Assembly: GCA_020631855.1 (NCBI GenBank)
Contig: JACKGU010000001.1
Coordinates: 39,601 to 103,600, forward strand
Direction of reading: 5' to 3'
From: Candidatus Nomurabacteria bacterium
Lineage (GTDB): Bacteria; Patescibacteriota; WWE3; UBA101185; UBA10185
Length of the DNA: 64,000 nucleotides
In this document: piece after piece, positions 3,726 to 36,427 of the stretch
How positions within the stretch are numbered: the stretch's first letter is position 1
Layout: each line of letters opens with the position of its first letter
Notes under the pieces: model-generated
Told to the model about the DNA's origin: nothing
Database searches by the model: none
What the model saw: only the letters and a program-made list of their open reading frames with translations
Made by a program: the position numbers and the translations under genes

Positions 3726-4385
3726 TTATACGGGCAGTGAGAGCCCAGATCCTTTCCAATCCGTTAAAAATTTATCGAGGCCTTTTTTTGTTAAAGGGTG
3801 CGCACTTAGTCCTATAAGTATGTTGTATGGAACGGTGCATATATCGGCCCCTATAAGGGCTGCGGTTTCTATATCTTCTGCCTGCCGTATGCTTGCTGCT
3901 AATATTTTTGTTTTTATGTTGTAGTTAGAGTAAGCCTGTTTAATTTTCTTCAGTAGCTCAAAACCGGAGTTTCTTTCTATTTCATTTAATCGTCCGAGAA
4001 AAGGAGAAACGAATAAGACCCCGGCGTTTGCCGCCAGAAGAGCTTGATTTAAGGTAAAACAGAGGGTCATGTTTACGGCTATATTGTGAGAGCTTAGCTT
4101 TTTTGCTGCCATAAAACCTTCTGATACGCAAGGAATTTTTACTACTACGTGCTTGTTAAGTCTTGAGAGTGCTGTTCCTTCAGCAACCATGCCTTCATAG
4201 GTAGTTGCTACTGTCTCTATGCTTACTGGTCCGTGTATTAGTCTAAGTATTTTTTCAATATCTTTAGGGTAGTCTTGCGATGATTTAGCCGCAAGAGAAG
4301 GGTTTGTTGTAACTCCGGAAATTAGCCCTAATCTATAAGCATTTTCTATTTCTATAGGGTCGGCAGAATCAATAAATAGTTGCAT
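3726..4385 (-). CDS. tal: transaldolase (short / FSA-type)
   Basis: GVTTNPSL motif, 219 aa, TIM-barrel transaldolase family. Confidence 0.8.
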   Translation of the reverse strand: MQLFIDSADPIEIENAYRLGLISGVTTNPSLAAKSSQDYPKDIEKILRLIHGPVSIETVATTYEGMVAEGTALSRLNKHVVVKIPCVSEGFMAAKKLSSHNIAVNMTLCFTLNQALLAANAGVLFVSPFLGRLNEIERNSGFELLKKIKQAYSNYNIKTKILAASIRQAEDIETAALIGADICTVPYNILIGLSAHPLTKKGLDKFLTDWKGSGLSLPV

Positions 4386-16828: not shown

Positions 16829-16905
16829 GCCAACGTAGCTCAGTCGGTTAGAGCGGGCGTTTCATACGCGCCAGGTCGCTGGTTCGATTCCAGCCGTTGG
16901 CACCA
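16829..16905 (+). tRNA. elongator tRNA-Met (CAT), or tRNA-Ile2 (lysidine) if the C34 is modified
   Basis: Manual fold: acceptor GCCAACG/CGTTGGC with G1:C72, D stem GCTC/GAGC (C11:G24), anticodon loop TTCATAC, T loop TTCGATT, CCA; 77 nt. Confidence 0.75.
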
Positions 16906-21892: not shown

Positions 21893-21911
21893 TTTCGCCA
21901 CTGAACCGTAC

Positions 21912-22568
21912 CTAATTAATAAAAATGGCGTTTTGTACCATAATAATGCCTCCTAAATTGGTGGCATCTTCTATATATGCCCAAGGGCCTGTGTTTGTTA
22001 GACGCATTTCAAACCTTCCTCCGACCGGTATAATTACCGGTTCATTAAAGGCCTCCATAGAGGGGGTTATCTGCCGTATAATAACCGGTTTGTTGCTATC
22101 GTTGTTCCAAATAACTAGCTGGTTTATGTATCCGTTGGTTTGTTTTGGTGTAAAGCCCTCTTGCGTGTATGTTATTATTAATGCCCCGTATTTTGCATCC
22201 ACTTGTGCCGGGGTCATTTGAGATGTTTCCTCAAATTTTTTAAGTCTTTCCATTTCGGCCGCCTCTTGCTCCAGGGCTAAGTCTGTTAGCCTTTTAGCTT
22301 CGTTTTTAGACTCTACGTACGTGGTTGATTCTCTTGTGGAGGTGTTTTGCTGGTAGTTTTGGTCTTGCGGATTTGCCCCGTTTGTACTGTCAAGCTTGTC
22401 GGATATTGATTCCGTAACTTTTTTTAATATTGGAAGTTGTGAAGGGGAGCTGTTTTGTTCTTCTCCAACGGCGATAATTAATAAGAAAACAAGTGCTGTA
22501 ATTGCGCCTATTGCAAAAATCGGCTTGTTTCTAACTATGAAGTCTTTTAATATACCCATCTTAAACAT
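21912..22568 (-). CDS. hypothetical membrane-anchored protein
   Basis: N-terminal TM helix; no family motif. Confidence 0.3.
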   Translation of the reverse strand: MFKMGILKDFIVRNKPIFAIGAITALVFLLIIAVGEEQNSSPSQLPILKKVTESISDKLDSTNGANPQDQNYQQNTSTRESTTYVESKNEAKRLTDLALEQEAAEMERLKKFEETSQMTPAQVDAKYGALIITYTQEGFTPKQTNGYINQLVIWNNDSNKPVIIRQITPSMEAFNEPVIIPVGGRFEMRLTNTGPWAYIEDATNLGGIIMVQNAIFIN

Positions 22569-22621
22569 TATACAGGTTCGCTGAGGCTTAAAAAAGTAGA
22601 TTTGGTTTTGTATTTTGTTAT

Positions 22622-22659
22622 GGAAAAAGTGAGGGGCGGGCTTTTAAAGCCCGCCCCTC
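22622..22659 (-). terminator. intrinsic terminator after the DsbA-like gene
   Basis: Perfect hairpin GAGGGGCGGGC-ttttaaa-GCCCGCCCCTC with a T-run on the minus strand. Confidence 0.7.
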
Positions 22660-22682
22660 AATAAAACTCAACTAAAATGAAA

Positions 22683-23402
22683 TTATCGAACCTTCTCAAT
22701 AGCTTGCAGAACAGTTTCGGTCGAAGCTGCGCCACCTATTTGCTCGAAGTCTCCCGTTTTTGTATTAATTACAAAAGAAGAAGGAGTTCCCCTGATACCG
22801 ATTTTTAGACCGTTTTCTTGATCGCTGCTAACTTTTTTTGCAGTTTCCCCTGAAGTTAGGCAGGATGTGAAAGATCCTTCATCTAAGCCTTGTTCTAAAG
22901 CTAAAGTGATGAGCTGCTCTTGAGTTCCTGATTTTGTACTAAATATAGCGTCGGCATATTTCCAGAACGCTTCGTTCCCCCCAATTTTGGCTGCGCATTC
23001 AGAAGCTTCGGCTTGTTTTTGCGCATTAGGATGGATTGAAGGTAAAGGGAAGTGCCTGTATACATAAGCCACGTCCCCTGCCTGCTCTATTGCAGCCTTT
23101 ACGTTTGGATGGTATGACTGGCAGTAGGGACAAGAGAAATCGGAATACTCTATTAAAACTAAATCACTATCTGCTTTTCCCCTTACGTGATCAGAATCAT
23201 TTAATTCCAAAACACTTCGAATCGTTTTGTCGTCAACAGCGGCCGCTTGCTGGCCTTGTGGTGCGCTAGGGGTTTTTGTTTTTGTCCAAAGCATCCCTAT
23301 TACAAAAGAGGCTATAACAAGAAGGCCCATTAATGTCATTACTAAATAATTGTTTGGGGTACCGGCCGAACTTGCCTGGTACGAATTTTTGCTGTCTGTC
23401 AT
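22683..23402 (-). CDS. DsbA-like thiol:disulfide oxidoreductase (membrane-anchored)
   Basis: N-terminal TM helix and thioredoxin-fold CxxC (FSCPYCQ). Confidence 0.7.
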   Translation of the reverse strand: MTDSKNSYQASSAGTPNNYLVMTLMGLLVIASFVIGMLWTKTKTPSAPQGQQAAAVDDKTIRSVLELNDSDHVRGKADSDLVLIEYSDFSCPYCQSYHPNVKAAIEQAGDVAYVYRHFPLPSIHPNAQKQAEASECAAKIGGNEAFWKYADAIFSTKSGTQEQLITLALEQGLDEGSFTSCLTSGETAKKVSSDQENGLKIGIRGTPSSFVINTKTGDFEQIGGAASTETVLQAIEKVR

Positions 23403-23562
23403 AAGAAACTCTCCTAAACTTTTAACTAACTTTTTCTGTTTAGTAATAATAGCGACATTCGATCTTTATTACAAGGGCTATTTATGTTGCAGAAGAGGTT
23501 TATCTTAATGAGCGTAGCTCTTGCTTCTTTGTATTTAATACTGTGGTAAGTCTTTATGCTTT

Positions 23563-24171
23563 TCAATGTTGAGGCGTACCCCGTAAAACATCTATAGCAA
23601 TTTGTACCCCCTCTTCCGTCAGTACTAATTTGCTTCCTCTAAACTTTGCTCTGGCACAAACCTCCCTATCTAGGGCATTAGAAGTATTATTAACTTGCTC
23701 GGGAAATAGCCCATAAATTGGTAGTGGCGTTTCGTGGTCGCCACGGACTATTGCGATACTTAGATCTGGTTGAAGTTCGGCTTGTCTTCCTAAACCTGTG
23801 TTTGTAGGAGTTTTAACATATCCTACGGCCGTGATTTCCCTCCCATCACCTATTGTATGTTTGACCAAAACTATTGTTATGGGCAATGTGCCGATCTCGT
23901 CTGCAGGTTTTAAGTATTGTATCCTTTCTGACTCAGACATTTTAGCGGCTCCTGTTTGTGAAGCTATAGCAGAGAAGAGCTCTGACGAGAGCTCCGCTAA
24001 CACCTTTCGTTGTTCTTCTCCTGCAAGTTTTGCAGTATGCATCTCTTCTTGTGCAGCACCTGCAAGGTTGCTGCCTCCTCTAGCTCTCTCCCACCTTTTG
24101 CGGCCCTCCTGGCCATATGTTCCCGTATTAGGCATATAACTCTTTATACTATTTTTTTGGATATTTGGCAA
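23563..24171 (-). CDS. hypothetical protein (202 aa)
   Basis: ORF track; moderately elevated GC content; no motif recognised. Confidence 0.3.
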   Translation of the reverse strand: MPNIQKNSIKSYMPNTGTYGQEGRKRWERARGGSNLAGAAQEEMHTAKLAGEEQRKVLAELSSELFSAIASQTGAAKMSESERIQYLKPADEIGTLPITIVLVKHTIGDGREITAVGYVKTPTNTGLGRQAELQPDLSIAIVRGDHETPLPIYGLFPEQVNNTSNALDREVCARAKFRGSKLVLTEEGVQIAIDVLRGTPQH

Positions 24172-24195
24172 AATCCTTTAATTTTTTACATAAAT

Positions 24196-25191
24196 TCAAG
24201 CTATCTTGCCGATTTTGTCTGCGAGTTCCATGTTAACTAGGTTGGTGGGGGCAGTTCCTTTTATTAGTACGTCTATTATGTTTTGTGCAGCCATTCTGGC
24301 CATCTGAATTCTTGCTTCTCTTGTTGCGCTTGCTATGTGTGGGGTTAGAATTATGTTATTGAGGCTGGTTAGTCCGTTATAAAGACTTGGTTCGTCTTCA
24401 AAGACATCTAGAGCCGCACCTTCTATTGTATTATTTTTTAGAGCCTCGTATAAGGCGGCCTCATTTACTATCGGTCCTCTCGCAGTATTTATTAAATAGG
24501 CGGTGGGTTTCATGAGCTCAAGCTCCTTCTGATTTATTAAGTGGCGCGTGCTTTCTATAAGGGGGCAGTTTAATGAAACAAAATCAGAGTTCGTTAATAA
24601 TTCCTCAAGCTCAACTTTTTTTGCGTCACATTCTTTTTCTATATCAATGTGTTCTTTTGGATCGGAGTACAAGATCTTCATTTTTAGACCGCCGTGGGCG
24701 AGCCTCGCCAGGTGTTGGCCGATTCTTCCCATGCCTATAATCCCCAAAACCTTATTTCTTAATGTAGGGCCTAGGAAAAGCATTGGGTCCCAGAATTGGT
24801 AGTTACCGTTTCGTACAAATTTATCGGCCGTTACAATGTTTTTGCTTAGAGCATAGATTAGCCCTAGTGTAAACTCGGCCACTGATTCAGTTAGATCGCC
24901 CGGAGTGTTTGATACATAAACTTTGTTTTTTGTTGCAGTTTCAATGTCTATGTTGTCATAACCCACGGCATAGTGCGCGATTATTTTTAAGTTTTGTCCG
25001 GCCGCCTCAATAATTTTTTGTGTTATCTTATCGGGAATTACTGGTAGTATTGCGTCGACCCCTACAACCGCCTTAAGCAACGCCTCTTCTGAAAGAGGGG
25101 GGCCTTTCCTGTAGTCTATCTCTATAGAAGGGTATTGTTCTAAAATTTTAATTCCGGCATCGGGGATTTCTCTTGTGATGAGCAGTTTCAT
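24196..25191 (-). CDS. D-isomer-specific 2-hydroxyacid dehydrogenase (glycerate / hydroxypyruvate reductase-like)
   Basis: NAD-binding GIIGMGRIGQHLARLA and the catalytic-domain layout of the D-2-hydroxyacid dehydrogenase family. Confidence 0.75.
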   Translation of the reverse strand: MKLLITREIPDAGIKILEQYPSIEIDYRKGPPLSEEALLKAVVGVDAILPVIPDKITQKIIEAAGQNLKIIAHYAVGYDNIDIETATKNKVYVSNTPGDLTESVAEFTLGLIYALSKNIVTADKFVRNGNYQFWDPMLFLGPTLRNKVLGIIGMGRIGQHLARLAHGGLKMKILYSDPKEHIDIEKECDAKKVELEELLTNSDFVSLNCPLIESTRHLINQKELELMKPTAYLINTARGPIVNEAALYEALKNNTIEGAALDVFEDEPSLYNGLTSLNNIILTPHIASATREARIQMARMAAQNIIDVLIKGTAPTNLVNMELADKIGKIA

Positions 25192-25249
25192 ACTTTAAGT
25201 GTAGCATTATTAATTTTTTTCATAAATATTCTATTTGTGAGGGCGCTGT

Positions 25250-26206
25250 TTATGAGGTTATCTCTTTTTTAGTCAGGAGGCCGTCGATACATCCTACACA
25301 TTTTACTATGCTGGCAGAATTTTTAGTTCCCCAAAGTAAAGCTTCCTTAAGACTTTTTTTATAGTATATCGCCGCCATAAAAGCCGCCGCAAAGGCGTCC
25401 CCGGCACCTGTTTTGTCTACAATAGGTTCTGCAACCTTAATTATGGGCATTTCCTCGTAAGATTCTCCATCAGAAGCGCTGGAGCCGTGTTTTCCGTTAG
25501 TAATAACTGTTTTTTTGGGCCCCAGTTTTTGCAATTTTTCGTGTAGTTCTGTTTGTGCCGCTGAAAGCCCGGTTGGGAGACCGATTATTGCATACGCTTC
25601 CTCTCTATTTACAAACAATATATCTGTGCGTTTTAAGACGTTTAGCAATTTTCCTGTTCCTGCGCGCATGTGATACGTGCCGGGATTAAAGGCAAGTCCT
25701 ATGGAAGGGTTTGCGTTTAGGTATTTCACCAAGTCAGCTTGAAATGTCTCAAACCCGTCAGCTAAAGATGTATAAAAAACCCAAGATATTTGTGGCAATT
25801 TTGTAAATTCGACCTCGTATTTATATGGGTAGTGGTATGAAAATATCGTGCGGTCGCCTTTGCCCCAAATAATCGTATGCACGTTAGTGTCTACCCCTTT
25901 GTTTTGTCTGCAAAGGTGTGTGTTTATACCGTAACTTTTGTATTTTTCTATGAACCTAGAACCGTTTTGATCCTCGCCAAGTTCAGTATAAATGGCGGTA
26001 TTAATATTTAGCCTTTGGAGACCTACGGCAACGTGGCATGCGTTTCCTGCAAGAGTAGAGGCAAAAGTTTTGACCGGAACTTTGCTACCATGAACAAAAC
26101 ATATTTCAGGCTGTTTCATCTTCAGATCTTCATGTATTTCAACTGATTCAAGTTCAAGATATTGATCGATAGAGCTGTCTCCGATTACTAATACATCGTA
26201 AGCCAT
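25250..26206 (-). CDS. PfkB-family carbohydrate kinase (ribokinase-like)
   Basis: PfkB C-terminal signature DKTGAGDAFAAAF. Confidence 0.75.
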   Translation of the reverse strand: MAYDVLVIGDSSIDQYLELESVEIHEDLKMKQPEICFVHGSKVPVKTFASTLAGNACHVAVGLQRLNINTAIYTELGEDQNGSRFIEKYKSYGINTHLCRQNKGVDTNVHTIIWGKGDRTIFSYHYPYKYEVEFTKLPQISWVFYTSLADGFETFQADLVKYLNANPSIGLAFNPGTYHMRAGTGKLLNVLKRTDILFVNREEAYAIIGLPTGLSAAQTELHEKLQKLGPKKTVITNGKHGSSASDGESYEEMPIIKVAEPIVDKTGAGDAFAAAFMAAIYYKKSLKEALLWGTKNSASIVKCVGCIDGLLTKKEITS

Positions 26207-26209
26207 AGA

Positions 26210-26428
26210 TTAATATGTTCCAAAAAAAAGCCCGATAATAATTTTTGCAATTCCGTAGGCAACTGTACCAAAAAACATAGAGATCAGTGCTTTAGTGGGA
26301 GGCTTTATTGTGCCTTTTATATTATGTATTGCGTGGTAGGTTATCGAAAAAACAAACAAAAGTGAAAAAAATTCCGCAGTATGCATTATGCCTTGCTCTG
26401 TGGTTAGGTTATTGAAGACATTAAACAT
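26210..26428 (-). CDS. small hydrophobic protein (72 aa)
   Basis: ORF track only; two hydrophobic helices. Confidence 0.25.
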   Translation of the reverse strand: MFNVFNNLTTEQGIMHTAEFFSLLFVFSITYHAIHNIKGTIKPPTKALISMFFGTVAYGIAKIIIGLFFGTY

Positions 26429-26558
26429 TGAGATAATAATATCATAAACACTAATACGCTCAATATTTATTGCGGTAAGACTGCTAGCCTCATTTCGCAG
26501 ATGAAGGTGCGGGTTTGCGACAGTAGAGAAGAGAATACAGACTTACGTATGTAGTATT

Positions 26559-27563
26559 TTATTTTTTATTTATATTATTTACTGCCAGGCTGTATATAGC
26601 TTCACTATCAACTCCGTATTTATTTTTCAGCTGTGCGTAAGTTCCTGATTCTCCAAATGTGTCCCTTGTTCCTATGCGTAAGACTTTCGTGGGCATTTCC
26701 TCGCTAAGAATTTCAGCCACCGCACCGCCAAGGCCGCCTGATTGTTGGTGTTCTTCTACAGTTATGACTAGTCTTGTTTTTGTTGCAGATTGCAGAAGCA
26801 GAGTTTTGTCAAAAGGTTTTATTGTGTGCACATTTATAACTTCGGGTTTTATGCCGTTTTCGGTAAGTTTTTTTGTAGCAATTATTGCTTCGTGGCATAT
26901 TGGTCCGGTGCATACTATTGTCAGATCGTCGCCTTCAATAAGGGTTTGTGCCTTTTTTACGTCAAAAGGAGTTGAGGCTGTTGTTATTTCAGGAGTATCT
27001 TCTCTGCAAAGTCTCATGTACACTGGCTTGCTCAAGGTCACGCTGGCTTCTGTAGCTTTTTTTGTTTGTTCATAGTCTACAGGACTAAGCACTACGGTAT
27101 TAGGAAGGGTTCTCATAATAGCTATGTCCTCAAGTTCTTGGGCTGTAGCTCCGTCGGCGGAGGGGGACAGCCCCGCATAAGCACCTACCATTATTACAGG
27201 AAGATCAGAGAAGCAAATTGAAACTCTAATTTGATCCAAGTTTCTCATGGGCGAAAAGGCGGCAAAGGAGGTTATAAAAACTTTCTTTCCGCATGCCGCA
27301 AGTCCGGCCGCAATACCTGCCATGTTCTGTTCTGCTATTCCGACCTGAAAAAATCTGTCTGGAAAATTTTTCGCGAAGTCGTCGGTTTTCGTAGAACTAT
27401 TAAGGTCCGCACATAGCACCACAACATTTTCGTCTTCTTTTCCTAATGCAAGAAGGCTTTCTCCGAAAGCCTTCTTCGTGGATTTTAGGCTCGGGTTAAG
27501 TCCGTGCATCCGATCGTTTAGAAGCAAGTTTGTGTTTACAGCAAGGGCAGGCTTTAGTTGCAT
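26559..27563 (-). CDS. transketolase, C-terminal (pyrimidine-binding) subunit of a split enzyme
   Basis: About 330 aa; pyrimidine-binding and C-terminal domain motifs; paired with the N-terminal subunit gene upstream. Confidence 0.8.
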   Translation of the reverse strand: MQLKPALAVNTNLLLNDRMHGLNPSLKSTKKAFGESLLALGKEDENVVVLCADLNSSTKTDDFAKNFPDRFFQVGIAEQNMAGIAAGLAACGKKVFITSFAAFSPMRNLDQIRVSICFSDLPVIMVGAYAGLSPSADGATAQELEDIAIMRTLPNTVVLSPVDYEQTKKATEASVTLSKPVYMRLCREDTPEITTASTPFDVKKAQTLIEGDDLTIVCTGPICHEAIIATKKLTENGIKPEVINVHTIKPFDKTLLLQSATKTRLVITVEEHQQSGGLGGAVAEILSEEMPTKVLRIGTRDTFGESGTYAQLKNKYGVDSEAIYSLAVNNINKK

Positions 27564-28090
27564 TCCTTTGTTTCCTTGGCTCTTTCGAACTCAATATCTT
27601 TATCGGTTTTTGTTATTCTAACAATATCAACCGCAATGTTTTTTTCGGGCTCTTCGTTGCAGCTTTCGCCGGGCTCGGTTTCAATTATTGAAACTGTATA
27701 TACGCCTTTTTCTTGATCTTCGATAACTTTTTTAATTTTTATTTTATAGCCTAAAGTGGGGTTCGTTGAACTTGCTACAGCAATAACCATTTCTTTATCG
27801 AAGTCGATCTCTTCTTTAATCGTTAGCAGTCCCGTTGAGTCTATAGTATTGAGAAACTCGTTCAATTGTTCTCTGGAGTTTATAACAAGTCGCTGTTTTT
27901 CCATGTCTTCTTGGTTGTATATAAATGTCGGGTAGCCTTCCAACCTAGTAACTTCAGTTGGGTCTTTTCGAAGTTTAGGTAATTTTATTTCATCCCCTAA
28001 AAGAAAATATCCGGCACCTAAGATTAATACTAGAATTAAGAACAGGGGAAGTAAGTTTATATTTAATTTTGTTTGATTGTTTTTATTCAT
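27554..28090 (-). CDS. hypothetical membrane-anchored protein encoded between the two transketolase subunit genes
   Basis: N-terminal TM helix; 4-8 nt overlaps with both flanking genes suggest translational coupling. Confidence 0.4.
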   Translation of the reverse strand: MNKNNQTKLNINLLPLFLILVLILGAGYFLLGDEIKLPKLRKDPTEVTRLEGYPTFIYNQEDMEKQRLVINSREQLNEFLNTIDSTGLLTIKEEIDFDKEMVIAVASSTNPTLGYKIKIKKVIEDQEKGVYTVSIIETEPGESCNEEPEKNIAVDIVRITKTDKDIEFERAKETKECN

Positions 28091-28976
28091 CGTCGTAACA
28101 CTTTATGCGGCCTTCCAAGGATCTAAGGGCGTTAAGAGCTTTTTTTGCCTCTTTTGCGCTAGGTACTTTTCCGTGCCATTCAAATTTATACTCCATAAAA
28201 TCGGCCCCTTTGCCGGGGATTGTATGCGCAACAATAGCGGTCGGCCTTTCAAAGACTGCCTTAGCCATATTAAAGGAGTTTACTAGTTCCTCTACGTTAT
28301 GTCCGTCTACCTCTAGGACGTGCCAATTGAAGGCTTCCAACTTTTCCCTCAAAGATTCTAGCGGCATAACATTCTCCGTGTAACCGCTGATTTGAATATT
28401 GTTTCTATCTATTATACACGTAAGGTTATTCAACCTCTTATTTCCGGCGTACATCAGGGCTTCCCAGACTTGCCCTTCCTGCATTTCGCCATCTCCTAGC
28501 ATGCAGTACACTCTGTATGATAGTTCTGAGAGTTTCGCGCCAAGGGCAAGTCCTATAGCTTGGGATAGTCCTTGCCCTAGAGAACCGCTCGAGTTTTCAA
28601 TGCCCGGTACAGAGTTTTTGCGCGGATGGCCTTGAAGACCCGAATCAAGCTTCCTTAGTGTTTTTAGTTTGTTTTTGTGAAAAAATCCTACTTGAGCTAA
28701 AACCGCATACCAGACAGGGCATATGTGCCCGTTTGAAAGAATGAACCTGTCTCTGTTTTCATGGTGAGGGTCTTTAGGATCAATGTTAAGTATTTTATGG
28801 TACAGCACTGCGAAAATGTCTGCAGTTCCAAGAGCTCCGGCTATGTGTCCCGAACCTGCCTCTACTAGCATTTCTACAACTGATTCCCTAAGCTCCACGG
28901 CTTTTTTTTCAATTGTGCATATTTCTTTATCGGTACAGTATTGAAACTTGTTGTTTGCAGGCGAGTATTGGGGCAT
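28083..28976 (-). CDS. transketolase, N-terminal (thiamine-diphosphate-binding) subunit
   Basis: GHIAGALGTADIFAVLY and the ThDP motif GDGEMQEGQVWEA. Confidence 0.8.
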   Translation of the reverse strand: MPQYSPANNKFQYCTDKEICTIEKKAVELRESVVEMLVEAGSGHIAGALGTADIFAVLYHKILNIDPKDPHHENRDRFILSNGHICPVWYAVLAQVGFFHKNKLKTLRKLDSGLQGHPRKNSVPGIENSSGSLGQGLSQAIGLALGAKLSELSYRVYCMLGDGEMQEGQVWEALMYAGNKRLNNLTCIIDRNNIQISGYTENVMPLESLREKLEAFNWHVLEVDGHNVEELVNSFNMAKAVFERPTAIVAHTIPGKGADFMEYKFEWHGKVPSAKEAKKALNALRSLEGRIKCYDDE

Positions 28977-29003
28977 TAAGTATAGTATCTAATTTATTAC
29001 GGT

Positions 29004-30287
29004 TTAATTCAAGTGTTCGTTGTTATATTTTTTTATAAAATCAAGAACTTCTTCAGGGCTCGTGCAAATTTTCACAAGGTCGGCCTCACCTTCGCGCAAA
29101 AGAAGGTATTTTTCAAGAGCGGCAATTATTTCTTCCCAGAAATTTCCATATAAGATTATTGGTTTATGGTGCCCCTCGTGTATTCGAGAGTTGGCCCAAC
29201 TCATGCCGAGTTCGCTCAGTGTTCCTGTCCCTCCAATGAATACGATGTGCAGGTCTGTGTTTTGCAACATTATTTTTGTACGATCGAAATAATCCTTCGT
29301 TGTAATTTCGAAATCAAAGTCGTTTTCGGGATCGGTGCCTTCATAGTTTTTATGCTTGTAGCTTGGGCTGTAGGTAACCACCAGTACTTCTTTGCCCCCT
29401 GCGTGTGTTCCTTTGGTGGCCGCCTTCATAATACCGGGTCCGCCCCCGTTTATAACCGCAATGCCGTTTTCTGCTAGAAGTTTAGCCACGGCAAAAGCCT
29501 CTTTATAGGCTTGATCTTTCTCAGTTAGTGCTGCTCCGCCAAAGAACCCCGCAGATTTTATTACTCCGGAATATTCTATAGGTACTAGTTTTTCGGAGCT
29601 TTTTTTCTGTTGAACTTTTTTTTCACTCATTATGTTTTTTATAACTTTTTGTAATTCTAAGTATGCCTCATCGGGTCTATTTTTTGCAAATATTGCGGAA
29701 CCGGCAACGACCGAGTTTATCGATCTGATAACAGAGTAACTAAAGTACTCCTTTAAAGTTTTTGTGTTTATACCCCCGTCTAGTTGAAGTAGGTGGTCTG
29801 GGTTTTTTTTAGCAAATTTCAGAGCATTTTTAAAAGCTTCCGGCTCAAATTTTCTGCCTTGTCCTCCCGGCACTACGGTTAAAAACTGTACGTTGTTTGT
29901 ATAGGAAGAAAAGACAGCCATTTCTCTATCTGATGTGTCTAGGGAAAATGAGATTCCGAGATCGATTCTATTTTCTGCACATAGTTGCTCGAGCATTTTG
30001 AAGTGGGCCTTACTTTTTATTGCTTTTGACAAAACGTATATTTTTGAGATGTGGCCGTTCTGAAAAATATATTTTTCAGGAACGGCCACCATTAAATCTA
30101 GTTCTAAAGTTAAGTTTTGTTCAAAATTTAAATCAAAGAGGGGACTCGGGTCTACAAAAGTTTTACCTTCTACTAAAGTCCCGTCGCACATATCGATCTG
30201 AATATGCTTAGCAGTGCCCCCAAGCCCTTCAATGTTATTCAGAACTTTTTCTATCGACTGTTCTAAGATAGTTGGGTAGATTTTCAT
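29004..30287 (-). CDS. fusion of a ribulose-phosphate 3-epimerase-like TIM barrel (N-terminal) with a LOG/TIGR00730-family nucleotide phosphoribohydrolase domain (C-terminal)
   Basis: N-terminal: IYPTIL...HIQIDMCDG, LDLMV, LTVVPGGQGRKF, LDGGIN...VAGSAIF, matching RPE blocks. C-terminal: GGGPGIMKA and IGGTGTLSE, the LOG-family motifs. Confidence 0.55.
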   Translation of the reverse strand: MKIYPTILEQSIEKVLNNIEGLGGTAKHIQIDMCDGTLVEGKTFVDPSPLFDLNFEQNLTLELDLMVAVPEKYIFQNGHISKIYVLSKAIKSKAHFKMLEQLCAENRIDLGISFSLDTSDREMAVFSSYTNNVQFLTVVPGGQGRKFEPEAFKNALKFAKKNPDHLLQLDGGINTKTLKEYFSYSVIRSINSVVAGSAIFAKNRPDEAYLELQKVIKNIMSEKKVQQKKSSEKLVPIEYSGVIKSAGFFGGAALTEKDQAYKEAFAVAKLLAENGIAVINGGGPGIMKAATKGTHAGGKEVLVVTYSPSYKHKNYEGTDPENDFDFEITTKDYFDRTKIMLQNTDLHIVFIGGTGTLSELGMSWANSRIHEGHHKPIILYGNFWEEIIAALEKYLLLREGEADLVKICTSPEEVLDFIKKYNNEHLN

Positions 30288-30727
30288 TTTAGTATATCCT
30301 CCAGTTCTGAAAGCCTTCTAACGTGGCGCTCTTGTTTTGAAAAAGAAGTGTTCAGCCATGCCCCTATTATGTTTTTTGCTTCGCTGTAGGATACGTAGTC
30401 GGCAGGCAAAGCTAAGACATTTGTATTGTCATCTTTTCTGGAGCTTTTAGCGTGTTTTGGTGACCACGATAAGGCGCATCGAATATGCTCGAATCTGTTC
30501 ATGGCCATGCTGACTCCGACCCCGTTTCTGCACAAAATGATGCCTCGAGAGTACTCGGTGTTTTGACTCATTTTTTCGGCAAGCTTTTTTGCATATTTTG
30601 GATAGTCATCGTCTTCTAAAAACTCAGACGGCCCTAAGTCAGTAATTTTAACACCGGCTTTTTTAAAAAGATTTATTAGTTTTGTTTTAAGTTCGTAACC
30701 GCCATGGTCAGAGGTTATATAGAGCAT
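30284..30727 (-). CDS. rpiB: ribose-5-phosphate isomerase B
   Basis: RpiB/LacAB family: MLYITSDHGGYELK, CRNGVGVSMAMN; 147 aa; 4-nt overlap with the downstream gene. Confidence 0.8.
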   Translation of the reverse strand: MLYITSDHGGYELKTKLINLFKKAGVKITDLGPSEFLEDDDYPKYAKKLAEKMSQNTEYSRGIILCRNGVGVSMAMNRFEHIRCALSWSPKHAKSSRKDDNTNVLALPADYVSYSEAKNIIGAWLNTSFSKQERHVRRLSELEDILK

Positions 30728-30739
30728 TGTTTAAGTATA

Positions 30740-31399
30740 CTATATTTTAATTCCGGGTTTTTTATATAAAAAAACAATGGTAATAAGTGAAACCATTGCA
30801 AGTAAAAAGCTTACAGCTACGCCTACATTAAGGCCCCATTCTACCCAATGAACACTCCTTGTACTCTCTAATACCAGCCTTTGCGTTGAGTACATAAAAA
30901 TGTATATTAAAAAAATGGCCCCACTTTTATAGTGTGTTGTTTTTTTATCAAATAAATTGTTTATTGCTAAAATAAATAGCCAAATTATGATATTTCCCGC
31001 AATTTCAAAATAGGCATATGGTAGAAGTTCTTGATTATAAACATTTCCGAGCCTGCCTATGGCTTGTCCTAAGGGGGCATTTATGGCGCATGCGTCAAGC
31101 CAAAGACGAACGGGCTGTTTTTTAATTGCTAAGTACGCTGTCGTGCTCAAAAGAGTACCTAATATCGCGCCATAAATGCCCATTCCTCCTTTCCAAATCT
31201 CCAAAGCCTGGGTCGGGTTAGAGTAGTAATACGATCGGAAATCAAGTACATGGTAAAGTCTTGCGCCTACAATTCCCCACACAATAGCATAAAATAAACC
31301 TCCCCAAAATATGTTTACATCAAGTTTTTTCTTACCAAGTGCACGCTCCGTAAGTAGAGCGTATATTAAAATGGCACCGGTTATGAAAAAACCGTACAT
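30740..31399 (-). CDS. lgt: prolipoprotein diacylglyceryl transferase-like membrane protein (short)
   Basis: GGMGIYGAILG and GRLGNVYNQEL resemble the Lgt signature regions; only 219 aa. Confidence 0.45.
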   Translation of the reverse strand: MYGFFITGAILIYALLTERALGKKKLDVNIFWGGLFYAIVWGIVGARLYHVLDFRSYYYSNPTQALEIWKGGMGIYGAILGTLLSTTAYLAIKKQPVRLWLDACAINAPLGQAIGRLGNVYNQELLPYAYFEIAGNIIIWLFILAINNLFDKKTTHYKSGAIFLIYIFMYSTQRLVLESTRSVHWVEWGLNVGVAVSFLLAMVSLITIVFLYKKPGIKI

Positions 31400-31402
31400 G
31401 AT

Positions 31403-31948
31403 TTAGATTAGGTATAAGAAATAAACTAGCAAAATAGTAAGAGTTCCAATATAAATAAAAAACCCATTTCTTTTTGGTTGCTCCTTGAGTATCCAGAACC
31501 AGCTGGAAAGGTTGTTGTCGAAGTAAATCTGTATAGCCTTATAAATACTTACGGCAAGGGCCGAAAAGACTAGAGCTTTAACAAAAAGCAATGAGGATGA
31601 AAATGCAATAAGGCCGCCTAACACAGTAAGCGCGAACTGGAAAAGGGCACTGTTTAAAGGTTTATCGGTAACCTCGTTTTTGTGAAATTGAGTGTAGGTT
31701 AAGGCGTTTTTGAAATCTTTATCTTTGAGATAGCCCCGTAAGGTTTGAGAGAAAATTGACTCTTTATCTAAAAAGTATGCAAAGGCCAGGTAGTCCGCTT
31801 CAAAAATTATTCCGCCCATTATGCTTGAGGCTATAACTGCCACAAAGGCTAGGGGATTTGCGACAGAGGATTTTGTAATTATTATTATTGCTATTGTGAG
31901 AGAGATCAAAAAATGTATTTTATAGAAATTAAAAATGTGCCTTATCAT
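31403..31948 (-). CDS. hypothetical polytopic membrane protein
   Basis: ORF track; about 5 TM helices. Confidence 0.3.
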   Translation of the reverse strand: MIRHIFNFYKIHFLISLTIAIIIITKSSVANPLAFVAVIASSIMGGIIFEADYLAFAYFLDKESIFSQTLRGYLKDKDFKNALTYTQFHKNEVTDKPLNSALFQFALTVLGGLIAFSSSLLFVKALVFSALAVSIYKAIQIYFDNNLSSWFWILKEQPKRNGFFIYIGTLTILLVYFLYLI

Positions 31949-32017
31949 TAATTTTTATTTTAGTAGTTGTGCGTGGTATTTGCAACGAACTTAACAAAAA
32001 AGAGAACTTGCGCGGCT

Positions 32018-32374
32018 TTAGTTTGTTTCTTTTTCATTCTTCTTTGGATGCGGCTTTTTTTCTGTGGCTTGCTCTTTCTCGGCCGAGGCTGCTTTTAACT
32101 GTTTCACCTTCCACATAAATAGGCGGCCTTTTGTTGTAGCGTTGGGCGAGGCCTTTATGTGATCCAGAGCTTGTAATAGCAGGTTGCGATCTTCTGTTTT
32201 TGCTAATTTTATATACAACGCCCGATGTTTTATGTCTCCCAACTCTTCAGCAAGCCTGTTGCCGAAAGCCTGAAATTCATATGAGTTTCTGTGATCTCGG
32301 TTGGCTTTTTTATTTTTTAATATGTCTGCTAGTGTTTGCATTGTATTTCTAGGCACGAACTGCACTGTTTTCAA
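32018..32374 (-). CDS. hypothetical basic protein (118 aa)
   Basis: ORF track; lysine-rich tail; overlaps the upstream ORF, so in an operon with the ligase gene. Confidence 0.3.
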   Translation of the reverse strand: MKTVQFVPRNTMQTLADILKNKKANRDHRNSYEFQAFGNRLAEELGDIKHRALYIKLAKTEDRNLLLQALDHIKASPNATTKGRLFMWKVKQLKAASAEKEQATEKKPHPKKNEKETN

Positions 32375-33416
32375 GAGATATCGCCTCCAGGGAATAGGCG
32401 AGCGCCGAAAGAATAGTCACTAGGGGATCATCGTTTGTTTTTACCCTGGTTGCGTAGGCCAGGCCTGCACGTAAAGCCCATATTGTGGTGCTGACGTTGT
32501 AAAGTGCTAGTATTTGAACAGCTTCTTCCAGCCGCCCTTGTTGCAAAGGCCCTTTCGGGTCTTGTGCTTTCCTGCGCATCCGCGGTTCTGCGAGCAGTGC
32601 CCACATGAGATTTATTAATATGTTAATATCTTGAACATCGATCTCTTTCCCCGTGCTTATTTGGTGAGTCTCGGGCGCAGGTGGAAATCCAAGAGAAGGA
32701 TTTCTGGGCATTAAACCTTCGATTATATTAGTTGCAAGAGGCCCTAACTCCTCTCTTAATATTGAGATTTCACCCTGTACAGCCCCTCTAGTGATGCCGA
32801 TGGCGGGTAGCCAGTTAGGTGGAAACATGGGTGGTTTAATCCCCCCATTCAACCCGTTGCTGCGATCCCCCCTTTTGAGAACAGGCAGTATCACTCCTTC
32901 AAGGCCGTGCCTCCCTAGCATATTAGCTCCTGTGAGGTCATACAAGGTTTTACTGGGAGCTTTGTAAAGTATTTCGTGGGTGGCCGCCCCTATAGTTAAA
33001 ATTGCGGTTAGTATAGGGTCTCCGAAACTTCCCACTTCATATACTGCTTCTTTAACAACAGCTTTCGGAACAAATCCAAGTATAGCTGACGCCCAGGGCA
33101 CATAGAGAGGTGGAAGTATGCTGCAGGTTTTTTCCACTACTCTATCGTGCAACATTCCTGTAAGCGTGTCCTTATGAGCATCTTCCGGCCCATCTCTTTT
33201 AGGGTAACTATTGCCAAGGATCTCGATGTCTGTTCTGATAGGTTCTAGTGTAGGCTCGTCCCTTGTGATAGGAAAATGAAGAAGACCGTCCCTTTTTTTC
33301 CTAAGATCAAAAAAAGTAGCAGCGAGGGAAGCTCCGAGTCTGGGAATAAACTCTCTCCTAGTAATTATTTCTTCATTTGGGGTCCTAGAGATAGTTATTG
33401 CTTCATTGTCTGGCAT
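32349..33416 (-). CDS. hypothetical protein with a possible twin-arginine signal
   Basis: TRREFIPRLGASLAATFF near the N-terminus; 14-nt overlap with the ligase gene. Confidence 0.35.
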   Translation of the reverse strand: MPDNEAITISRTPNEEIITRREFIPRLGASLAATFFDLRKKRDGLLHFPITRDEPTLEPIRTDIEILGNSYPKRDGPEDAHKDTLTGMLHDRVVEKTCSILPPLYVPWASAILGFVPKAVVKEAVYEVGSFGDPILTAILTIGAATHEILYKAPSKTLYDLTGANMLGRHGLEGVILPVLKRGDRSNGLNGGIKPPMFPPNWLPAIGITRGAVQGEISILREELGPLATNIIEGLMPRNPSLGFPPAPETHQISTGKEIDVQDINILINLMWALLAEPRMRRKAQDPKGPLQQGRLEEAVQILALYNVSTTIWALRAGLAYATRVKTNDDPLVTILSALAYSLEAISLENSAVRA

Positions 33417-35214
33417 CTTTCTCCGGCCTCCTTCCCGTTGTTAGTTTGTATAAATCTTCTATTTCTTTTAGTGTTGTGATGTCCCTAACATTCTTATCCA
33501 CCCTAAAACCTATTAGTCTGGGAAATCTCATAGCGAAGCCTGAAGAGTGAGAAGGGGATTTTGTTATTTCATCTCCTGATATTTCAACTACAAGCTGTGG
33601 TTTTGTCCAGACATCCGGCGCTAAGCCTTTTGGAACTTCAACTTCTTTCGGCGCGCCTTTCACCATAATTTTGTCTGCTTGGGATTTTAAAAACTTTAAT
33701 TCTTCATCTTTTAGACCTGTACCAACTTTTGTAATTGATTTATATGTTTGGGTCGCGCTATCGAAGATTCCTGCTAAAAAACCTCCTATGCCAAACTCGT
33801 TGCGTATTCCTCTGCCGAGGTAATAGCCAAGAATAACTACATCTATAGTGTCGTCCAGTAGCGTATCGTCTGCAACCTTAAATTTCACCCATGTATAAGA
33901 TCTTGCCCCTGCTTGATAAGGGGCCATAGGATTTTTTGCAATTATGCCCTCAAGCTTCTTCTCCCTTACTTTTTCAAAAAAGGCACTTAGTTTTTTGGCC
34001 TCAGAAAATGTTTGGTAGTTGACAACTACAATTGTATCTGTTGTGTTGTCGTTGCTTTTTATTACACCGCCTAAAATTTTTTTGCGCTCAGCTAGAGTTT
34101 TGTTAAGTAAAGACTCGCCGTTTAGATATAAGATGTCAAACACAAAGTATTTTAAAGGTATTTCTTGAGCAAGTTCACTTATATTGTGCTTTCTTTTTCT
34201 TTGAATTGTTTGTTGAAAGGGTAGGAACTCGCCGGTTTCTCTGTCATACCCTATCGCTTCACCATCCAATATAGCACTTTCGGCTTTTATTTGTTTGTTT
34301 GCCGCAGTTACGATCTCCGGATATTGGTGTGTTGTTTCTTCTAAGTTCCGTGTGTACGTTTTAATTAAAAAACCTTTGTCCTCTTTAAGTTCTTCAAACA
34401 AGCTTTTTCGAGCTGTATTAAGGACGCTTCTGTCCATATGAAGCTGTACTCTGGTCCCGTCAAACTTGTACTCTGCGTATACCTCTCCCATTTTTTCCAA
34501 TATCTCTTCGACGCCCGAAAGTCTCTGGCATTTTTGTGCCAGTATCGGGATGCCGATTTCAATATCCAGTTCTCTTAGACCTTTCTCGCCCTTTGTTTTT
34601 ATGAGGTAGGTTACATATCCTATATCGGGGTGTGTGTTATATTTTTCTTCTATACTTTTTCCAAATTTTTTGTTTTTGCCAAGAACTTTTGCTAACGCGT
34701 CCAGAATAGTTAGTTCAGTAAAACCTAGCCTGTTAGTACCAAGAATGATTCTTATTATAAATTTTGCGGAAACCGAGTCTGTCGATTTTAGCAATTCTGC
34801 TGTTGTAATAATTTTTTTGTCCTGAGAGCCTGTTCCTGAGGCATTGGCAATTTTAAGCAAAGCGTTGTAAACCTCAACTACCGTCTGTTTTTTGATAGGC
34901 TCTTGTCCCTGGTGTTTTAGTGACAGTTTTTCTGCAGCCAGACCAAGGTCCCCCAAATCGTTATAGAGATTTTCTACATCTGTTTCAGCTATGTTGTAGG
35001 CTATAGAGATTGCTCTTAGCGCCAGTTTTTCGGCCATGTTAAATTTTATGCTTTTAAACGGCGCATCAAGGTAGCCAAGTGAAAGGTAAACTGCTTGTTT
35101 TATTTCTTCAGGTTCAAGAATCTCGATCATTTCGGCCAGGATGCTTGTAATTTCCAGTCTAGCCGAGGTGTTTTCGAGCCTTTGTAGATACTTAGAATAG
35201 TCTCCAAACTGCAT
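33403..35214 (-). CDS. ATP-dependent DNA ligase
   Basis: Motif I EYKFDGTRVQLH (KxDGxR), an N-terminal DNA-binding domain and a C-terminal OB domain; 603 aa. Confidence 0.8.
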   Translation of the reverse strand: MQFGDYSKYLQRLENTSARLEITSILAEMIEILEPEEIKQAVYLSLGYLDAPFKSIKFNMAEKLALRAISIAYNIAETDVENLYNDLGDLGLAAEKLSLKHQGQEPIKKQTVVEVYNALLKIANASGTGSQDKKIITTAELLKSTDSVSAKFIIRIILGTNRLGFTELTILDALAKVLGKNKKFGKSIEEKYNTHPDIGYVTYLIKTKGEKGLRELDIEIGIPILAQKCQRLSGVEEILEKMGEVYAEYKFDGTRVQLHMDRSVLNTARKSLFEELKEDKGFLIKTYTRNLEETTHQYPEIVTAANKQIKAESAILDGEAIGYDRETGEFLPFQQTIQRKRKHNISELAQEIPLKYFVFDILYLNGESLLNKTLAERKKILGGVIKSNDNTTDTIVVVNYQTFSEAKKLSAFFEKVREKKLEGIIAKNPMAPYQAGARSYTWVKFKVADDTLLDDTIDVVILGYYLGRGIRNEFGIGGFLAGIFDSATQTYKSITKVGTGLKDEELKFLKSQADKIMVKGAPKEVEVPKGLAPDVWTKPQLVVEISGDEITKSPSHSSGFAMRFPRLIGFRVDKNVRDITTLKEIEDLYKLTTGRRPEKDARQ

Positions 35215-35252
35215 CTTCCTATTATACTATAGAAATCGGACTTATCCTATAG

Positions 35253-36224
35253 TTAATTTGAGAGTTCGTAGCGCGAAGATTTTGTACTGCCTAATTTAAC
35301 TACAATGCCCATATCTATTAACTTTTTCAAATCTCTTAAAATCGTATCTTCCGACAGATCAGGAAAAAGGGCAGGAAAGTCCTTGTTCTGAATTAATACG
35401 TAGTCCTGAAGATAGCTGATTATACGTTCGTGTCGCTGTGACAACTTTGCTCTTCCGGCCGCTTTCGCGATTTTAGCATCTTTTGCAAGCATTTTAATTT
35501 TATCCGCCACTGTAGAAAGCTCTCGATGAGCAATATCGGTTGTATATTCAAGCCACTGTGTTAAGTCATAAGACTTGCGGGCATCATCAATAAGCTCTTG
35601 ATAATCGAGATATGTTTTGTATTCATACTCTTGTGGGCAGAAATATCCTTTAATGTTGTACCCGTGAGATTCCAGCAGTACGTCTGAAATTAGATCGGCA
35701 AGTAGAGAATTATGTTTTTCAAAAGGTTGTATTATTTCAATGTTTAGTTTAACTATGTAAGCCAGCAACATAGGGTGTGTTTGCAGGGCTTCTACACTTT
35801 GCAGCCAGTCTACCAGCTCAACCATTTGAGCTAAAATTTCATCTGCAGGCACTCCTTTTTGAGATGGGGTATTTCTATATTTTGATGTTCCGGTTAAGGC
35901 CTTGTATAAGTCAGCAATATCCTCCTCAGTTAGTTCTTTTGTTGATGCATAGTCGTGAGATAATTCCAAGGTTGAGAGGTATCTCTCGGCTATGTGCGGA
36001 ACCTTAGTAGGTAAGTTTGTTATTAGTTTTTTTATGTCTTCCGGATTGATGTTTGTTCCGTCCTTTTGTATTGCGTAGGATATAGTTCTTGTTTTTGCGT
36101 CTACGATCAGCTGATTCTCCCAGTTGCTTAGCAAAGGTGTGTTTTCAATAATAGCCTTCGCATACTCTATTCCCGAGACGTTTTTTAGTATATCCGATGT
36201 AATTGTATATTCAGGAGAGAACAC
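35253..36224 (-). CDS. hypothetical protein, possibly Fic-like with a degenerate motif and a C-terminal winged-helix domain
   Basis: Weak: QPFEKHNS lies where Fic HPFxDGNGR would be; a helix-turn-helix-like C-terminus. Confidence 0.25.
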   Translation of the reverse strand: MFSPEYTITSDILKNVSGIEYAKAIIENTPLLSNWENQLIVDAKTRTISYAIQKDGTNINPEDIKKLITNLPTKVPHIAERYLSTLELSHDYASTKELTEEDIADLYKALTGTSKYRNTPSQKGVPADEILAQMVELVDWLQSVEALQTHPMLLAYIVKLNIEIIQPFEKHNSLLADLISDVLLESHGYNIKGYFCPQEYEYKTYLDYQELIDDARKSYDLTQWLEYTTDIAHRELSTVADKIKMLAKDAKIAKAAGRAKLSQRHERIISYLQDYVLIQNKDFPALFPDLSEDTILRDLKKLIDMGIVVKLGSTKSSRYELSN

Positions 36225-36310
36225 TAAATAATTCTCGCATATTTACCGCAAAGTTAAAATAACATATATTTTACATCTCTGTAGAGGCATCTTCAGTGGG
36301 TTAGGCAAGG

Positions 36311-36427
36311 GCTTTATAATTCAAAACTACTTGCGTAAGCTAGTCGGTGTAGTTTACTCGACATGTTGGGCTTTGTAGCTTAAAGAAATTACAGTAAAAC
36401 ACTTGCGTAAGCCGGTGGCGGTTGGTT
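36311..36427 (+). repeat. dispersed intergenic repeat, copy C (8-nt deletion near the 5' end)
   Basis: Aligns to copies A and B; abuts the recF stop codon. Confidence 0.8.

Follow-up and report, generated by a model that had tools for sequence, protein, structure and literature searches.

An RPE-like/LOG fusion protein in a pentose phosphate gene cluster of a WWE3 bacterium, with a predicted role in the use of nucleotide ribose

Introduction

Bacteria of the candidate phyla radiation (CPR, or Patescibacteria) have no means of making nucleotides and are believed to subsist on what they scavenge from their hosts, and the locus described here raises the question of how the ribose of such nucleotides might reach central carbon metabolism. 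It lies in a 64,000-nucleotide stretch of the genome of a Candidatus Nomurabacteria bacterium of the WWE3 lineage (assembly GCA_020631855.1, contig JACKGU010000001.1, positions 39,601 to 103,600; hereafter the window, to the whole of which all coordinates refer), in which a minus-strand gene at 29004..30287 encodes a 427-residue protein joining a barrel like that of ribulose-phosphate 3-epimerase (RPE) to a domain of the LOG family, within a cluster of pentose phosphate genes. A preliminary description of this sequence suggested that the fusion channels salvaged nucleotides into carbon metabolism. The explanation that we favour, with moderate confidence, is that the RPE-like and LOG domains form a two-domain enzyme in a conserved sugar-phosphate module, feeding the ribose of nucleoside monophosphates (NMPs) to the pentose phosphate pathway.

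Conversion of nucleotides to carbon and energy in the CPR is known mainly through an AMP pathway that depends on RuBisCO, which many of the lineages do not have, and what LOG proteins do in bacteria that produce no cytokinins is still a matter of debate. The locus bears on both.

Results

The gene at 29004..30287 is one uninterrupted open reading frame, its halves share the same frame, and there is neither a stop codon nor a change of frame near 29650, the point at which the preliminary description warned that a frameshift might have merged two genes. Families were assigned by Pfam and NCBIfam profile searches, with scores compared with the curated cut-offs. Both of the families predicted for the protein are found above cut-off, with PF00834 (Ribul_P_3_epim) matching residues 3-200 (49.5 bits, cut-off 21.1) and PF03641 (LOG/Lysine_decarbox) residues 287-416 (47.2 bits, cut-off 27), and PF18306 (SLOG cluster4, or LDcluster4) additionally matches residues 248-368 (60.4 bits, cut-off 26.3). 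The RPE-like (β/α)8 barrel (residues 1-225, 29613..30287), supported by PF00834, Foldseek and matches in the PDB, is followed by a Lys/Ser/Glu-rich interdomain linker (residues 226-243, 29559..29612), evident from its sequence and low predicted local confidence (pLDDT), and by the type-II-LOG-like SLOG domain (residues 244-427, 29007..29558) recognised by PF18306 and PF03641, with the stop codon at 29004-29006. An AlphaFold2 model built from 45 aligned relatives, all 45 of which match the same three Pfam families, shows two well folded domains, a barrel and a Rossmann-like domain (mean pLDDT 88.9), on either side of a disordered segment (residues 226-237, pLDDT <50). Ten contigs carry exactly this protein, which has four NCBI accessions, HXK52764.1 and MCA9301872.1 among them; it comes from metagenome-assembled genomes (MAGs) labelled WWE3 or Nomurabacteria, where it carries the automatic name ‘LOG family protein’, and a search of 5.8 billion proteins recovers fused relatives of about 400 residues in at least 94 clusters, at 35-45% identity and with the same three Pfam families.

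Both domains resemble enzymes of known function. The preliminary description had allowed that the N-terminal half might score better as another TIM-barrel family, and it does not: by sequence, PDB searches return RPE/AlsE only, and in Foldseek comparison with the PDB the top 29 matches are all RPE/AlsE (target-normalised TM-scores 0.73-0.83), the closest being the RPEs of rice, human and Streptococcus pyogenes (0.78-0.83). The closest folds to the C-terminal domain are those of type-II and type-I LOGs and of Neisseria meningitidis YgdH (5zi9, 1wek, 9us2, 5wq3, 5zbl and 5zbk, TM 0.70-0.80), and its best PDB matches in phmmer searches are 9us2 (E = 1e-15) and 1wek (4e-13). Its score for the cytokinin-LOG equivalog NF058542 (31.4 bits) is far under the 300 required. 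The LOG motifs are in place. The GGGxGxM phosphate loop reads N280-GGGPG-I-M287, with G281-G285 and M287 conserved in all 95 aligned fused relatives; R336 stands in an invariant D-Y-F-D-R-T-K block, aligned with the Arg of the ‘AERK’ motif of 9us2; and G355, T356 and E359 of the GTxxE element are kept in 94-95 of the 95. R336 and E359 correspond to the catalytic Arg and Glu established for LOG enzymes.

The association of the two domains extends well beyond this genome. GTDB was scanned with one genome for each species, and 86 loci were fetched and classed with hidden Markov models of both halves; many TPA_asm MAG records bear organism names (‘Saccharibacteria’, ‘Pseudomonadales’, ‘Gammaproteobacteria’) at odds with a placement among WWE3 or Microgenomates sequences, and such names were not used as taxonomic evidence. 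Relatives occur in WWE3, Davies-, Collier-, Chisholm-, Shapiro-, Curtiss-, Woese- and Amesbacteria, among others. The survey of related genomes for the same fusion, as the preliminary description had recommended, did find fused relatives, but the fused form accounts for only seven of the 86 loci, compared with 61 in which separate RPE-like and LOG genes lie adjacent, in that order and on the same strand, and 18 in which only LOG is seen, two of them being LOG-methyltransferase fusions and some lying at contig ends. The split genes mostly meet with junctions of -32 to +16 nucleotides, eight of them as ATGA overlaps. Judged from this gene order, the usual state is a pair of translationally coupled genes, and the fusion is a clade-restricted minority. 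An exhaustive search with the RPE-like half alone, in which fused proteins have no advantage, found almost exclusively stand-alone proteins of about 210 residues among its 150 best matches. In a LOG-domain tree built by neighbour joining, fused forms fall in one WWE3-like clade only, with split forms interspersed, and parsimony requires at least nine changes between fused and split states; all Microgenomates relatives are split. At or just before the linker DNA of the window gene lie runs of eight (29616-29623) and seven (29600-29606) adenines, which would ease frame switching.

The neighbouring genes recur with the pair. In 49 of 68 loci the gene directly upstream of the RPE-like one is rpiB, for ribose-5-phosphate isomerase B, and in two the pair is fused; the order rpiB, RPE-like, LOG, then transketolase and/or a PfkB-family kinase recurs in WWE3 and many Microgenomates lineages. 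LOG is followed by the two transketolase subunit genes (tktN and tktC), PfkB and a dehydrogenase, or in many Microgenomates loci directly by PfkB. The synteny in WWE3 is longer, running from a ligase through several small proteins and the lgt-like gene to rpiB, the fusion, transketolase, PfkB and the dehydrogenase, and is seen also on independent metagenome contigs. Genuine single-frame RpiB-RPE-like fusions of about 365-410 residues exist (L010 5398-6627, L015 3958-5058, P0132, P0177 and P0216), in which LOG is a separate, overlapping downstream gene, so the three genes join in different combinations by lineage. The link between LOG and pentose phosphate genes first drawn from one operon is thus much the stronger for the recurrent gene order and two Rosetta-stone types of fusion; the enzyme activities and flux that were attached to it are predictions. 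An apparent RpiB-RPE-LOG triple fusion (P0077, 554 residues) was rejected: on translation, the locus proves to contain a TGA in frame which had been taken for a Trp codon, and it encodes rpiB and an ordinary two-domain protein. Members of the same LOG clade also occur on two contigs labelled Bathyarchaeia archaeon (L056 3447-4543 and L027), in the first of which an rpiB homologue follows directly; these are either mis-binned CPR DNA or a transfer of the module to archaea.

We propose that NMPs, scavenged or from turnover, would be hydrolysed by the LOG half, acting as a type-II-LOG-like phosphoribohydrolase (NMP + H2O to base plus ribose-5-phosphate, or R5P), and that the free bases would be retained for salvage. 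The PfkB kinase might supply NMPs from nucleosides, or R5P from ribose. RpiB would convert part of the R5P to ribulose-5-phosphate (Ru5P), and the RPE-like half, which most likely still interconverts Ru5P and xylulose-5-phosphate (Xu5P) through an Asp32/Asp170 acid-base pair, would turn this to Xu5P. Transketolase, with a transaldolase encoded at 3726-4385, could then take R5P and Xu5P to fructose-6-phosphate and glyceraldehyde-3-phosphate (G3P) for glycolysis and fermentation. This route from NMP through R5P into the non-oxidative pentose phosphate pathway is one that comparative genomics supports well; the architecture, folds, motifs, linkage and fusions are observed, whereas the two activities, their substrates and metal, and which way the flux runs are inferred. 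The preliminary idea of channelling by the fusion does not hold in its direct form, as RPE has no substrate until RpiB has isomerised the R5P, and this step falls between the two joined activities. Co-expression, fixed stoichiometry or a shared oligomer is more plausible, and the fusion probably fixes co-expression and stoichiometry. RPE and type-II LOG each usually form hexamers, and a common assembly would account for the fusion.

Several observations weigh against the proposed role. The product of LOG and the substrate of RPE are not consecutive, on account of the intervening isomerase step, and the predicted TM-score of the AlphaFold2 model (0.57) indicates no fixed interface or orientation of the domains. 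The RPE-like half scores far below the NCBIfam RPE cut-offs (TIGR01163, 48.2 bits against 212.6; NF004076, 66.3 against 165), and alignment to 1tqx, 1h1y and 3ct7 gives a metal-site tetrad of Gln30-Asp32-Asp64-Asp170, in which both metal-binding His are gone. No other soluble enzyme of the cluster is as poorly conserved: median identities to WWE3-like relatives are 30% for the RPE-like half, 57% for the LOG half, 61% for TktN, 50% for TktC, 48% for RpiB, 46% for PfkB and 59% for the dehydrogenase, which makes the barrel the fastest-evolving soluble enzyme of the module and could indicate relaxed or altered function. Some fused relatives match PF00834 far better (best E = 8e-42), so the window protein lies at the divergent end of its family. 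The LOG half, which at the level of sequence is far more constrained than its partner, falls below the TIGR00730 cut-off (66.4 bits against 96.35) and among Pfam models matches best SLOG cluster4, to which no activity has been assigned, and the fusion of its clade to methyltransferases elsewhere indicates that its role is not tied to this pathway in every lineage.

Other explanations were weighed, and the likeliest of them keeps the chemistry and changes its purpose. LOG would then serve mainly nucleotide-pool homeostasis and base recovery, the bases being freed, in an organism that does not produce its own, for salvage by phosphoribosyltransferases, with R5P a by-product and the pentose phosphate neighbours reflecting its disposal or inherited synteny and no catabolic route to energy. 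Escherichia coli PpnN (YgdH), a member of the LOG superfamily that splits NMPs to base and R5P, has an established role of just this kind, in draining excess nucleotides whose bases are re-used (PMC10311079), CPR genomes are mostly without nucleotide biosynthesis (PMC3812714), and the LOG-methyltransferase fusions of other CPR lineages place the same clade outside a pentose phosphate context. We nevertheless think this unlikely. The adjacency of LOG to rpiB and the RPE-like gene across phylum-level divergence, the overlapping stop and start codons and the independent fusions are not easily accounted for unless selection has favoured joint function with the enzymes that process R5P, and family scans find no phosphoribosyltransferase gene in the cluster or the 64-kb window.

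A second explanation concerns the barrel, which might act as an epimerase or isomerase on a different sugar phosphate, or have lost catalysis and serve LOG as a partner that binds phosphosugars, the true RPE being encoded elsewhere. In canonical RPEs the tetrad takes a His and an Asp from strand 2, a second His from strand 3 and a second Asp from strand 7; this Asp pair exchanges protons with C3, and the phosphate is bound by Gly/Ser loops (bioRxiv 10.1101/2022.09.29.510120). The preliminary description had noted Asp in place of the metal-binding His in the motif LDLMV, and D64 does fall where RPEs of known structure have their second metal-binding His, but this real change belongs to a minority subtype and the replacement of the first His by Gln30 had been missed (H28, two residues before it, is not a metal ligand). 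Among the 95 fused relatives the first ligand position is Gln in 88 and His in only two, and the second is His in 86 and Asp in six. The exhaustive search with the RPE-like half alone gave 149 representatives, whose signatures are QDHD (98), HDHD (27), QDDD (19), SDHD (3) and SDDD (2). On these alignments the family-wide change at the metal site is first His to Gln, and second His to Asp marks the minority subtype. The first active-site Met is lost as well (C34; A, C or L in the family), and the exhaustive search, which covered 1.84 billion representatives, matches only 1,622 at E ≤ 1e-3 and none at 1e-30.

These departures, with the lowest conservation in the cluster, speak for a barrel that is no longer an RPE. 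Set against them, RPE/AlsE are the only structures matched and the catalytic residues are otherwise retained: Asp32 is present in all 92 sequences ungapped at that position, D170 and G141 are invariant in the 95, Met66 is kept, and so are all the phosphate-binding loops (P140-G141-x-Q143-G144, G171-G172 and G196-S197, with G144, G171-G172 and G196-S197 in at least 89 of 95). Orthologues occupying the same slot beside LOG keep the canonical HDHD in eight of 69 loci, which argues for a true RPE lineage. The gene lies between rpiB and transketolase, exactly where rpe is needed, and a 2013 analysis of WWE3 took the cluster to cover the steps from Ru5P to G3P (PMC3812714). Family scans find no second, canonical RPE inside the 64-kb window. 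We consider a barrel with some other function distinctly unlikely.

The third alternative turns on the LOG half, and would make the SLOG domain a nucleotide sensor or oligomerisation scaffold that regulates pentose phosphate enzymes, or an enzyme that cleaves some other phosphoribosyl compound. Consistent with this, its best Pfam match is SLOG cluster4 and not the classical LOG model, and TIGR00725 as well as TIGR00730 is below cut-off. The window motif I-G-G-T-G-T-L-S-E359 has Ile for the Pro of PGGxGTxxE (Lys in most relatives), with a consensus of K-G-S-I-G-T-L-S-E in most members of the family, and there are family-specific invariants with no known LOG role (H347, W364, H370, E371, Y306 and E316). 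The same clade is moreover joined to methyltransferases elsewhere. Even so we consider a sensor or an altered substrate improbable, as the GGGxGxM loop, the Arg and the Glu of GTxxE, which serve LOG catalysis and phosphate binding, are invariant, the nearest sequences and folds of known function are all LOG phosphoribohydrolases, AMP complexes among them, and there is no match to SLOG models of defence systems. An anti-phage SLOG effector was likewise considered and rejected: PADLOC gives no match, and the neighbours are housekeeping sugar-phosphate enzymes. The methyltransferase fusions join a clade member about 40% identical to the LOG half of the window protein to an S-adenosylmethionine (SAM)-dependent methyltransferase (P0096-P0120; L085 6001-7290), and are found in genomes labelled Dojkabacteria or Doudnabacteria, in a clade of their own and away from pentose phosphate genes.

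Finally, that an assembly, sequencing or gene-calling artefact merged two neighbouring genes might be suspected from the adenine runs in the linker DNA, from near relatives that carry the two genes in different frames and from P0077, where the apparent triple fusion really is such an artefact, but is effectively excluded by the single frame with no intervening stop, the identical protein on 10 contigs under four accessions, the many clusters of fused relatives, whose linkers differ, and the lack of any start codon with a ribosome-binding site before the LOG domain.

Organisation of the gene cluster

The genes named in the preliminary description are all present at the positions it gave them, co-directional on the minus strand, and their families are supported by Pfam and NCBIfam. 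Furthest upstream is a gene for an lgt-like membrane protein of 219 residues (30740..31399), a short homologue of prolipoprotein diacylglyceryl transferase that matches PF01790 with 126 bits and is below the NCBIfam lgt cut-off (89 bits against 118.9). Of 20 WWE3-like loci, 18 keep it upstream of rpiB; it is probably syntenic with the pentose phosphate genes, not functionally linked to them. The rpiB gene (30284..30727, 147 residues) matches PF02502 with 143 bits and exceeds the cut-off of the RpiB subfamily model NF004051 (150.9 bits against 135). Its TGA stop shares the sequence ATGA (30287-30284) with the ATG of the fusion gene, and within its 3' end, nine nucleotides before that ATG, lies a Shine-Dalgarno-like GGAGGA (30297..30302), the putative ribosome-binding site of the fusion gene.

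Downstream of the fusion, transketolase is encoded as two subunits. The N-terminal, thiamine-diphosphate-binding subunit (28083..28976) matches PF00456 with 190 bits and the N-terminal half of NF004559 with 313 bits, and the C-terminal subunit (26559..27563), with the pyrimidine-binding and C-terminal domains, matches PF02779 (128 bits), PF02780 (111 bits) and the C-terminal half of NF004559 (279.7 bits). Wedged between these genes, and overlapping each by 8-10 nucleotides, is one for a 178-residue protein (27554..28090) with an N-terminal hydrophobic segment, indicating that it is membrane-anchored, and a weak PrcB_C-like domain (PF14343, 18.4 bits, and NF033596, 29.8 bits, both below cut-off); it is kept in 14 of 20 WWE3-like loci and in none of the Microgenomates loci. 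The PfkB-family kinase (25250..26206, 318 residues; PF00294, 123.5 bits) is below the cut-off of every NCBIfam equivalog, and its nearest solved chains are YdjH, the Methanocaldococcus jannaschii nucleoside kinase MJ0406 and ribokinases, so that ribokinase and nucleoside kinase are both candidates. The last conserved member, kept downstream in related loci, is a D-isomer-specific 2-hydroxyacid dehydrogenase resembling glyoxylate reductase and phosphoglycerate dehydrogenase (24196..25191; PF02826, 196.8 bits), which is under the NF009714 cut-off (348.9 bits against 455).

A scan of 21500-36500 for sigma-70 promoters and terminators returned as many as in shuffled controls and so sets no operon boundaries, and an Rfam scan of the window found no riboswitch or other regulatory RNA. 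The sole strong intrinsic-terminator-like hairpin on the minus strand (22660-22630, a 14-bp stem with 10 G-C pairs and a T-rich tail) comes after a DsbA-like gene (22683-23402), downstream of the whole co-directional block, and as it is the only one, transcription of the pentose phosphate genes may extend down to it.

A second sugar-phosphate cluster lies at 1943-4385, also on the minus strand, and contains genes for a ROK-family kinase (1943-2794; PF00480), a short 6-phosphogluconate-dehydrogenase-like protein of 307 residues (2801-3724; PF03446 and PF00393) and a transaldolase/FSA of 219 residues (3726..4385; PF00923, 175 bits). It gives the genome a transaldolase, which is predicted to supply the remaining non-oxidative pentose phosphate step, and part of the oxidative branch.

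Other features of the window

Elsewhere in the window, a plus-strand gene at 48559-49947 encodes a 462-residue protein with the C-terminal domain of the branched-chain polyamine synthase BpsA and a SAM decarboxylase domain, possibly a fusion of the polyamine pathway. Another (9052-9717, plus strand, 221 residues) matches the model for NpmA-type 16S rRNA (adenine1408-N1) methyltransferases with 141 bits (cut-off 60), a family usually treated as a determinant of aminoglycoside resistance. From 9717 to 15091 there is a run of reading frames with no Pfam match, with a tRNA-Pro gene inside it (11327-11403), that ends at a minus-strand tyrosine recombinase/integrase (15114-15986) adjoining two tRNA-Met genes (16577 and 16829), and the region 9717-16905 may be an integrated element. 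The rRNA operon (50200-57717) is interrupted, the 16S (50200-51677) and 23S (54478-57510) genes being separated by about 2.8 kb that holds an unannotatable reading frame (52266-52733), an NAD-dependent epimerase/dehydratase (52815-53705, minus strand), tRNA-Ile (minus strand) and tRNA-Ala (plus strand). The 23S match is 3033 nucleotides long against a model of 2925 positions, and the gene may carry an insertion.

Discussion

The two halves of the protein have known counterparts from which they diverge. With type-II LOGs (Thermus TT1465, 1wek; Corynebacterium glutamicum, 5wq3; Streptomyces coelicolor, 5zi9) and N. meningitidis YgdH (9us2) the C-terminal domain has in common the Rossmann-like SLOG fold, the GGGxGxM loop, the catalytic Arg and the Glu of GTxxE, the best sequence matches having E-values of 1e-15 to 1e-9. 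It differs in the Ile of its Glu motif, in its additional invariants in its sub-threshold TIGR00730 score and in its setting, as those proteins stand alone, neither fused to nor clustered with pentose phosphate enzymes. The barrel shares with canonical RPEs (human, 3ovp; rice, 1h1y; S. pyogenes, 2fli; Chlamydomonas, 7b1w) the (β/α)8 fold, Met66, the Gly-rich loops that bind phosphate and, on strands 2 and 7, the pair of Asp that serve both catalysis and metal binding, at 20-24% identity. Unlike them it has Gln-Asp-Asp-Asp, and most of its subfamily Gln-Asp-His-Asp, for His-Asp-His-Asp, scores far below the NCBIfam RPE cut-offs and is fused to or paired with LOG.

PpnN is about 450 residues long, with extra flanking domains and allosteric control by ppGpp, and, unlike the window LOG, is not known to be fused or genetically linked to rpiB, rpe or tkt; the LOG domain of the window protein, at about 185 residues, does not have these flanking domains, the PpnN-like 3bq9 is matched only at E = 0.73, and no PpnN-specific Pfam or NCBIfam model matches the 427-residue protein. 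The metabolic logic of PpnN is nonetheless the same as that proposed here. Sedoheptulose-7-phosphate and erythrose-4-phosphate rise in wild-type E. coli and not in a ppnN deletion strain, and metabolomics indicates that R5P derived from PpnN enters the pentose phosphate pathway (PMC10311079).

The goal we propose, passage of NMP ribose to central carbon metabolism in organisms of sparse metabolism, is also that of the route already known in archaea and some CPR bacteria, which consists of AMP phosphorylase, ribose-1,5-bisphosphate isomerase and form II/III or III RuBisCO (PMC6389311; PMC3812714). The means are distinct, as that pathway proceeds by phosphorolysis to ribose-1,5-bisphosphate and then carboxylation, whereas the route suggested here would proceed by hydrolysis to R5P and then the non-oxidative pentose phosphate reactions, and the two have no homologous enzymes in common.

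Parts of the picture have been reported before. In 2013 Kantor et al. pointed out this lower pentose phosphate cluster, with its D-2-hydroxyacid dehydrogenase, in the WWE3 genome RAAC2 (PMC3812714), and fusion of RPE to a pathway neighbour is known from the Rpe-Tkt(N) proteins of Thaumarchaeota (PMC11237513); neither paper mentions a LOG partner, an RPE-LOG or RpiB-RPE fusion, or altered metal ligands. The WWE3 cluster (without LOG), archaeal Rpe-Tkt fusions and the supply of R5P by a LOG-superfamily enzyme in E. coli are therefore already known. Our literature search found no description of the deep RPE-LOG pairing, of its fusion variants or of the Gln/Asp metal site, and nothing specific on LOG in the CPR; the preliminary remark that the fusion was not known to have been described is borne out in that no paper on it was found. 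Though no surprise in kind, the RPE-LOG module offers a metabolic hypothesis that is clear and open to test, in a group of which little is understood.

We suggest more tentatively, as a possibility to which we give rather less than even weight, that rpiB, the RPE-like gene, LOG and PfkB, with or without transketolase, constitute an unrecognised hydrolytic module for the catabolism of nucleotide ribose in WWE3 and Microgenomates, in which LOG, in place of a phosphorylase or the RuBisCO-based AMP pathway, would be the committed step by which scavenged nucleotides enter the pentose phosphate pathway and fermentation, and the His2Asp2 site of the epimerase would have been exchanged for one rich in carboxylate and amide ligands. 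Such a site may alter which metal is preferred, disfavouring for instance the oxidant-sensitive Fe2+, and an RPE subfamily with Gln/Asp for His offers a natural experiment on metal selection in this class of enzymes. If the proposed role of the two-domain protein is correct, these bacteria would have a simple alternative to the RuBisCO-dependent AMP route, in which the NMP is hydrolysed, the base kept and the ribose burned, with RpiB, RPE and transketolase wired to LOG through fusion, overlapping genes and deep synteny, and bacterial LOG proteins would gain a concrete housekeeping role.

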